Positions 824 through 1,407 of a stretch of DNA of 3,658 nucleotides are shown piece after piece; within the stretch, counting starts at the first letter, position 1; the number at the start of each line of letters is the position of its first letter. The DNA is from Escherichia coli (GTDB lineage: Bacteria; Pseudomonadota; Gammaproteobacteria; Enterobacterales; Enterobacteriaceae), in assembly GCF_003334815.1 (NCBI RefSeq), contig NZ_QOWO01000081.1; one strand, written 5' to 3'. The notes beneath the pieces are model-generated. The model ran no database searches. It saw only the letters and a list, made by a program, of their open reading frames with translations, and was not told the DNA's origin. The position numbers and the translations under genes were made by a program.

Positions 824-871
824 CGCGGCGGGTGTCTGAGCCTTTCTGGTTCAGGCAAGACGCAGGGACCA

Positions 872-933
872 GAAATGCGAAGACCCCACTCGTTAATCCA
901 TTAACTCGTGAGGTCTGCATGAAGTTCCTAGCA
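872..933 (-). ncRNA. srnC: Candidate Sok-like antisense RNA (SrnC/PndB-type antitoxin) opposite the toxin mRNA leader
   Basis: The - strand promoter (-35 TTGACC, -10 TACAAT) points leftward with a predicted start near 933. The transcript would be complementary to the leader-ORF start region and contain the hairpin formed by 887-910. The 3' end is not defined by a clean U-tract, so the left boundary is approximate. Confidence 0.4.
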
Positions 934-978
934 GTTCTGATTGTAGCCTCTTCCTTGCAGAGAGGTCAAAGTTTATGA
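919..978 (+). CDS. Short leader reading frame (19 codons, MKFLAVLIVASSLQRGQSL) overlapping the toxin start; analogue of mok/pndC
   Basis: ATG at 919 is preceded by GAGG (910-913). Its TGA stop (976-978) overlaps the toxin ATG (975-977), the coupling arrangement expected for hok-family loci. Confidence 0.45.
   Translation: MKFLAVLIVASSLQRGQSL
940..969 (-). promoter_or_regulatory. Candidate promoter for the Sok-like antisense RNA
   Basis: Read on the - strand: TTGACC (+ coordinates 964-969), an 18-nt spacer, then TACAAT (+ coordinates 940-945). It lies inside the leader ORF and points toward the toxin mRNA 5' region. Confidence 0.45.
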
Positions 979-1124
979 CGAAATATGCCCTTATCGGGTT
1001 GATCGCTGTGTGCGCCACGGTGTTGTGTTTTTCACTGATATTCAGGGAACGGTTATGTGAGCTGAATATTCACAGGGGAAATACAGTGGTGCAGGTAACT
1101 CTGGCCTACGAAGCACGGAAGTAA
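975..1124 (+). CDS. srnB: Hok/Gef-family type I toxin (49 aa): MTKYALIGLIAVCATVLCFSLIFRERLCELNIHRGNTVVQVTLAYEARK
   Basis: Translated by hand from ATG 975 to TAA 1122-1124. It has a hydrophobic N-terminal transmembrane helix and the conserved C-terminal part I recall for SrnB (F plasmid) and PndA. AGAGG lies about 9 nt upstream. Absent from the ORF track because of its short length. Confidence 0.85.
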   Translation: MTKYALIGLIAVCATVLCFSLIFRERLCELNIHRGNTVVQVTLAYEARK

Positions 1125-1407
1125 GCTGCCGGGCGGGGACGGAAGTCCCCGCTTTCCGGAAGTGTGAGGTATTTCAGGGGCAGACACCCTACACGTCAGA
1201 AACCGCCGGTCCCGCCCGGGGCCGGCACACAGGTTAAGGCATTTCCTGTTTTTCAGCCATTTCGCAACAAAATTCACATTAAACGACAGTAATCCCCGTT
1301 GATTTGTGCGCCAACACAGATCTTCGTCACAATTCTCAAGTCGCTGATTTCAAAAAACTGTAGTATCCTCTGCGAAACGATCCCTGTTTGAGTATTGAGG
1401 AGGCGAG

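Follow-up and report, generated by a model that had tools for sequence, protein, structure and literature searches.

Two complementary 9-mers bracket the toxin gene of a hok-family locus in the stretch of Escherichia coli DNA analysed here (3,658 nt in all, hereafter the window). With a probability of roughly 0.9, we read them as the 5' translational activator element tac and the 3' fold-back inhibitory element fbi of an srnB-type, hok-family toxin mRNA of an IncF plasmid, and we propose that the two form a switch. The preliminary description of this DNA had already seen in the pair a hok-family fold-back of the 5' end onto the 3' end. That reading is upheld, because the helix closes the predicted fold of the full-length RNA (P = 0.99), is lost on 3' trimming, is conserved with compensatory changes in distant loci, and corresponds to the tac/fbi stem described for hok (PMC9841398). 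The pairing, the switch on truncation and the conservation with covariation are in silico results.

The feature is already known: a switch between tac, fbi and the upstream complementary box (ucb) has been published, and both 9-mers are identical to those of plasmid F. Fold-back elements have been familiar in hok-family mRNAs since the 1990s, and under no reading of this locus is the element itself novel. The result matters as annotation only, namely of a complete and apparently intact srnB-type post-segregational killing module beside an IncFII replicon. It is useful for the annotation of plasmid stability and illustrates three-way covariation (tac/fbi/ucb) cleanly; no new question arises from it.

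The locus, its setting and the transcript start

The window covers the part of an IncF plasmid that serves its maintenance and replication. Within it, the hok-family type I toxin-antitoxin locus is placed upstream of copB (1408-1656), a small replication regulator gene named 'replication regulatory protein RepA' in NCBIfam (NF010256), of the antisense RNA CopA (1794-1885, minus strand; RF00042, 101.9 bits) and of the gene for the IncFII initiator RepA (1958-2827; TIGR03474). A match of Rfam PK-repZ at 1798-1851 stayed below its gathering score and is explained by the CopA target stem-loop. On the other side of the locus, ORF 41-391 matches only the C-terminal part of DUF2726 in Pfam (model positions 54-110 of 126) and nothing in an NCBIfam search; its frame is open leftward toward the start of the window, with no stop in frame from position 2, so that the left end of the window may have truncated the ORF. 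For ORF 388-696 (102 aa), neither Pfam nor NCBIfam gave a match. This second ORF is followed on its 3' side, at 721-770, by a long hairpin, AACGCCGG...CCGGCGTT, then TTTTTG, which by its sequence looks like a terminator between the upstream genes and the toxin promoter; Rfam matches to MIR7510 and mir-427 at 720-765, both below their gathering scores, are explained by this terminator-like hairpin.

The toxin gene (975-1124, plus strand) encodes a 49-aa SrnB-type Hok/Gef protein. Pfam HOK_GEF (PF01848) aligns to it over model positions 1-42 of 42 with E = 1.4e-9, and its scores against the Hok-family models of NCBIfam lie under their curated cut-offs. By tblastn, annotated Hok/Gef proteins are 98-100% identical to it, and the homologous plasmids carry the Hok/Gef annotation. 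The protein is 98% identical to the common SrnB-type protein, from which it differs by one amino acid, and about 40-50% identical to family members outside the srnB group. At the DNA level, srnB of plasmid F (NZ_CP011496) is 96.4% identical to the window over 825-1235 and likewise lies just upstream of a copB-CopA-repA replicon. Given this identity and the same place before the replication regulator gene, the locus is therefore an srnB/srnC-type, hok-family type I toxin-antitoxin locus beside an IncFII replicon. The -10 hexamer, the +1 region, tac (GGGTGTCTG), ucb, the leader Shine-Dalgarno (SD) sequence and AUG, the 3' hairpins and fbi (CAGACACCC) are identical in the two plasmids; among the differences, G867 replaces a T of F and adds a G.U pair to the 5' stem. 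A search of a plasmid collection found the same locus in about 2,900 plasmids of Escherichia, Klebsiella, Shigella and Salmonella, and the exact variant of the window in 2-3 records at 99% identity or more.

The 5' element GGGTGTCTG at 830-838 (in the RNA, GGGUGUCUG) is perfectly complementary to CAGACACCC at 1181-1189, which starts 57 nt past the toxin stop codon. An inverted-repeat search recovered the same pair independently and extended it to 830-843 / 1176-1189 (14 nt, 86% complementarity, two mismatches). The 9-mer CAGACACCC occurs in the window at these two sites only, one per strand, and 200 dinucleotide shuffles gave a chance expectation of 0.05 matches per window.

The promoter of the toxin mRNA, as called by a promoter scan, occupies 796-823 on the plus strand, with a -35-like TAGTCA at 796-801, a 16-nt spacer, the -10 hexamer TATTAT at 818-823 and a TG extension at 815-816. 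Six nucleotides separate the -10 hexamer from G830, and in 12 loci out of 12, the window included, a -10-like hexamer ends 6-7 nt ahead of a conserved GGG. Moreover, the first position of the Rfam model RF01794 falls on 830. Promoter spacing, the 12-locus pattern and the model boundary together make a transcription start at G830 well supported, as judged from sequence. The preliminary description had placed the 5' element exactly at the predicted start and its complement about 60 nt after the toxin stop; its coordinates proved correct, and its placing of the start is reasonable.

RF01794 matches the window at 830-985 (plus strand), over its full length (model positions 1-157), with 83.8 bits against a gathering score of 59, and the leader of 11 homologous loci is matched as well. 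Although the family is named 'sok antitoxin', it aligns to the sense strand of the toxin mRNA, with model position 1 at the mRNA +1, here and in 11/11 homologous loci; to judge from these alignments, the model in practice describes the hok-type mRNA leader and not the antisense orientation.

Predicted folding of the mRNA and its response to 3' trimming

Folding of the toxin transcript and comparison with a covariance model had been suggested in the preliminary description as ways to check the pairing. The RF01794 match, which begins at 830, speaks for it, and so does the folding. In the minimum-energy folds of 830-1232 and 830-1260 (z = -6.4 and -5.4, respectively), the closing helix is exactly 830-838 / 1181-1189, nine base pairs with P = 0.99. 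Inside it, the upstream complementary box or anti-SD (ucb, 875-889, plus strand), recognised from the fold helices, the truncated fold and the tac/ucb covariation, covers the leader start: 875-878, 881-885 and 887-889 pair with 908-920, a stretch that takes in the leader SD GAGG (910-913) and AUG (919-921). The region before the toxin start, 963-968, is paired with 1102-1107, and the stretch holding the leader ORF is paired with the 3' part of the toxin ORF and with the 3' UTR.

Two further hairpins mark the 3' part of the transcript. A G+C-rich hairpin of 10 bp directly after the stop codon (1131-1154, plus strand), found both by the inverted-repeat search and in the fold, is likely to protect the 3' end of the processed mRNA, as the analogous last stem-loop of truncated hok mRNA suggests (PMC9841398). 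The second, also G+C-rich (9 bp; 1205-1226, plus strand), lies 3' of fbi in the folds and is likely a terminator or 3'-end structure of the full-length mRNA. It is itself without a T-run, one being found past it at 1250-1254, and a terminator scan called no intrinsic terminator after fbi, this hairpin included; the one call that the scan made, at 1004-1022, was discounted, as it lies inside the toxin ORF. In plasmid pSAL4605-1, a 16-nt deletion aligned to 1212-1227 removes the terminal hairpin's 3' half and leaves the locus otherwise intact.

Partition functions computed for successive 3' ends reveal a sharp transition. For 3' ends from 1189 to 1260, the probability of the 5'/3' helix is 0.99 and that of the 5' end pairing with 881-887, within ucb, is 0.00. 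With the 3' end at 1187 these values become 0.24 and 0.75, and at 1185 they are 0.00 and 0.99, so that the loss of 2-4 nt from fbi flips the 5' end onto 881-887 with a probability of 0.75-0.99. The tac/ucb pairing is favoured for 3' ends 1187-1181. For 3' ends at 1160 or 1153 its probability is only 0.04-0.08, and the fold of 830-1175 has the 5' end re-paired locally with 881-887. In silico, then, trimming brings about the alternative tac/ucb pairing, and ucb otherwise sequesters the leader SD. The predicted effect on the translation start itself is smaller: the unpaired probability of the leader AUG rises from 0.06 in the full-length RNA to about 0.3 after trimming, and the gain in SD accessibility is small (from 0.25 to 0.18-0.35). 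Folding alone is limited as evidence on translation control, and this leaves the existence and conservation of the 5'/3' helix unaffected.

Short nascent transcripts fold differently. In the folds of 830-856, 830-860 and 830-870 (-13.4 to -15.8 kcal/mol), an early, metastable hairpin is predicted at 833-857 (plus strand), in which 833/834-842 pair with 848-856/857. Such a hairpin would occupy most of tac before its downstream partners are made.

Combining these elements, we propose the following switch. Transcription would start at G830, with the hairpin 833-857 as the first structure of the nascent RNA. After synthesis of the 3' UTR, 830-838 would pair with 1181-1189 and close the whole RNA into a rod, in which 875-889 holds the leader ribosome-binding site and AUG (908-920), and 1102-1107 holds the toxin ribosome-binding region (963-968). 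This full-length mRNA should be stable, untranslated and a poor target for the antisense RNA. Slow 3' exonucleolytic trimming would then remove the terminal hairpin and the last few bases of fbi, and the freed 5' end would pair with 881-887, thereby releasing the leader start region. As long as the plasmid is present, the antisense RNA (minus strand, about 933 to 868) would bind the leader start and trigger decay, while in plasmid-free segregants the leader ORF would be translated, followed by the toxin through the ATGA overlap. For transcript ends, processing, translational coupling, antisense action and killing, this scheme borrows from the hok/srnB literature.

Thisted et al. reportedly described the 3' processing of srnB and pnd mRNAs in 1994 (EMBO J), which, together with Nielsen et al. 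in 1991, is said to be the basis for srnB processing and post-segregational killing; Gultyaev et al. are said to have reported the coupled covariations in 1997. For hok of R1, it is described that the full-length mRNA is locked by a tac/fbi stem joining its 5' UTR to its 3' UTR, that ucb sequesters the SD of mok, that a metastable 5' structure acts during transcription, and that the stable full-length mRNA is slowly processed at its 3' end, with post-segregational killing (PMC9841398); the same motifs are listed elsewhere (PMC3851714), and srnB-srnC of F is named as a homolog with consistent regulation (PMC4147584). The window matches the hok/sok (parB) locus of R1, with its tac/fbi/ucb/dcb folding switch, in anatomy and in predicted behaviour: the 3' element about 60 nt past the stop, ucb on the leader SD, the shift of tac to ucb on trimming, the early 5' hairpin, the antisense RNA over the leader start and the G+C-rich hairpin after the stop are common to both, although the sequences differ. 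All parts of the published hok switch have a counterpart here, that is, tac, the metastable hairpin, ucb, the leader SD, the leader ORF, the antisense RNA, the protective 3' hairpin, fbi and the terminal hairpin.

Conservation and covariation of the two pairings

Within the srnB group, both 9-mers are nearly invariant, the sole change being C836 to U in pAMSC2, where a G.U pair is kept; the covariation therefore rests on distant relatives. Distant family members were found by tblastn, and the mRNA start in each was set by Rfam. Ten further loci were compared with the window: F and pAMSC2 for the srnB group, and copies from Providencia (P. stuartii, P. rettgeri), Vibrio (V. parahaemolyticus, V. 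mediterranei), Aeromonas salmonicida, and IncI/K (IncK, IncI-gamma) and IncHI1B plasmids. In 10/10 of these other loci, the first 6-13 nt of the mRNA have a complement 43-68 nt past the stop codon. The sequences themselves are diverse: where the window and F oppose 5' GGGUGUCUG to 3' CAGACACCC, P. stuartii has GGGUGCUUGA and UCAAGCACCC, V. parahaemolyticus GGGAGCUU and AAGCUCCC, V. mediterranei GGGCGCUUAGACA and UGUCUAAGCGCCC, and Aeromonas GGGUGUUUG and CAAGCACCC, the last with one G.U pair. Six of the 11 loci have a perfect 8-mer complement 20-100 nt after the stop; among control 8-mers from these loci the rate is 0.2%.

The pndA/pndB systems (IncI/IncK, R483/R16 type) belong to the same family (RF01794 scores of 123-134 bits; toxins 48-52% identical to that of the window). 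Their 5' GGGCGC pairs with GCGCCC 58 nt past the stop, and the helix continues as UGAGG/CCUCA across a small internal loop, with P(5'/3' helix) = 0.96-1.0. It is thus interrupted, whereas the window has nine contiguous pairs.

In a mini-alignment registered on the helix, 92% of cells pair, a figure that is partly circular since the alignment is anchored on the helix, and four of the nine pairs (positions 4, 6, 7 and 9) are changed on both sides. An unsupervised MAFFT alignment gave 87% of cells paired, versus 41-65% with the partner slid by 1-3 columns, and three pairs changed on both sides. The preliminary description had made its claim depend on covariation among homologous loci, and these double changes supply it. 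Applied to the unsupervised 11-sequence alignment, RNAalifold returned the local tac/ucb stem in place of the long-range helix, with which it cannot coexist. In that alignment, the fbi columns are also 1-2 nt out of register in four sequences; for these reasons, the long-range pairs were counted directly on the alignments.

Positions 6 and 7 of tac also covary with ucb. The window has 'UC' there, whereas most of the homologs examined have 'CU', with fbi and ucb both changed to match. Over the tac/ucb alignment, 87% of cells are paired and 11 pairs show changes on both sides. Such a three-way pattern (tac/fbi/ucb) would be expected if both alternative pairings were under selection.

Folded independently, 10 of the 11 loci have a P(5'/3' helix) of about 1.0. 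The exception is the IncHI1B copy (plasmid pEF7-18-58_1, 270-671), which lies beside an IS element: its 3' partner is weak, G.U-rich and bulged (P = 0.14), an IS421 transposase is encoded about 200 nt downstream, and its fold-back may be degenerating. When trimmed, the RNAs adopt the tac/ucb pairing in the minimum-energy fold for only 6 of the 11 loci.

This last result bears on a scenario in which the helix is real but has mRNA stability as its main role, keeping RNase E from entering at the 5' end and stalling 3' exonucleases; control of translation would fall solely to the antisense RNA and the local ucb/SD hairpin. In its favour are the several homologs whose trimmed RNAs lack tac/ucb in the minimum-energy fold, the small predicted difference in SD accessibility between full-length and trimmed RNA, and the ability of the ucb/SD hairpin to form without fbi. 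However, covariation of tac positions 6 and 7 with both fbi and ucb is expected only if both pairings are selected, and the predicted flip of tac to ucb after removal of 2-4 nt of fbi also speaks against the scenario. Mutations at tac positions 4-6 of hok, moreover, abolish translation of the truncated mRNA (PMC9841398), and the published model allows stabilisation and silencing to act together. We consider a mainly stabilising role improbable, and retain the tac/fbi switch.

Leader frame, predicted antisense RNA and the state of the locus

The leader ORF (mok/srnB'-like; 919-978, plus strand) has 19 codons, is preceded by the SD GAGG at 910-913, and ends in a TGA that overlaps the toxin ATG (ATGA, 975-978), an arrangement that would fit leader-toxin coupling. 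Stop-start overlap is a standard way of coupling two frames. The leader ORF of the window ends at the toxin start, whereas mok of R1 is a frame overlapping hok (PMC3851714). Relative to F, a 1-nt deletion after 926 creates the separate 19-codon ORF where F has an in-frame reading frame of 68 aa; this N-extended, in-frame SrnB of 68 aa starts from the same ATG in F and in four further plasmids. The leader frame of the window, ATGA overlap included, is common to pKPC2-type Klebsiella plasmids and p104, and is therefore a recurrent allele and not a private lesion.

On the minus strand, the promoter scan called an antisense RNA promoter at 969-940 (TTGACC, an 18-nt spacer and TACAAT; 10/12 consensus matches). 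A cis-antisense antitoxin RNA of the SrnC/Sok type, about 60-66 nt long, is predicted at 933-868, both ends being approximate. Its fold (-26.9 kcal/mol, z = -4.5) runs from a single-stranded 5' end through a long hairpin to a U-rich tail, and the RNA is complementary to the leader SD and AUG. The locus is thus predicted to encode a cis-antisense RNA that has its own promoter and spans the leader translation start.

Among srnB-type loci, no stretch of the mRNA varies more than 926-936, where 8 columns vary within 11 nt and most of the mRNA is invariant; the window has six differences from F there, the 1-nt deletion included. This patch coincides with the predicted 5' end of the antisense RNA, immediately past the -10 hexamer of the antisense promoter, and may determine antisense specificity. 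A further step would be to regard the window as a distinct srnB/srnC allele, in which 926-936 could define a new antisense-specificity group that F-type SrnC does not cross-silence; we hold this for tentative and rather unlikely. If true, a conserved tac/fbi switch would be combined with a recognition module that diversifies. The patch is the only, and mildly, new angle at this locus.

The preliminary description had also taken the pairing as support for a functional, regulated mRNA as opposed to a decayed remnant. The inference is reasonable but calls for more than the 3' element. True remnants are found in plasmids pEcMAD1 and p104, in which unrelated sequence stands in place of the promoter and 5' element (about 790-858) and a 2-nt deletion lies near the toxin C-terminus (the altered 3' stretch aligns to about 1100-1160), with CAGACACCC still intact; p104 has in addition lost the post-stop hairpin through a 24-nt deletion. 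Because both plasmids keep CAGACACCC, the 3' element alone cannot tell a live locus from a remnant. What argues for an intact locus in the window is the complete set of parts, as read from the sequence: promoter, 5' element, upstream box, leader ORF, toxin ORF, antisense promoter and 3' element.

Could the locus nevertheless be a silent relic, its RNA elements kept by recent F-like descent and its killing activity lost, for instance through a leader frameshift that uncouples the toxin? The 1-nt deletion in the leader ORF with the other changes of 926-936, the clear remnants in related plasmids and the rarity of the exact variant could be read in this way. However, the toxin ORF is intact, as are its promoter and that of the antisense RNA, tac, ucb and fbi, the same 19-codon ATGA frame recurs in the pKPC2-type plasmids and p104, and the stop-start overlap that the deletion creates is itself a usual coupling arrangement. 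A relic is in our view very improbable, and an intact srnB-type module with its tac/fbi switch is preferred.

Lastly, chance complementarity, or a feature acting at the DNA level only (an inverted repeat left over from recombination or a protein-binding site, with no RNA role), has next to no probability: 9 bp is short, and G+C-rich plasmid DNA is rich in small inverted repeats (six in 521 nt), but the shuffle expectation and the control 8-mer rate are both low, the elements keep their place with respect to the +1 and the stop codon, and the Providencia, Vibrio and Aeromonas sequences differ yet remain complementary, a covariation that effectively refutes it.
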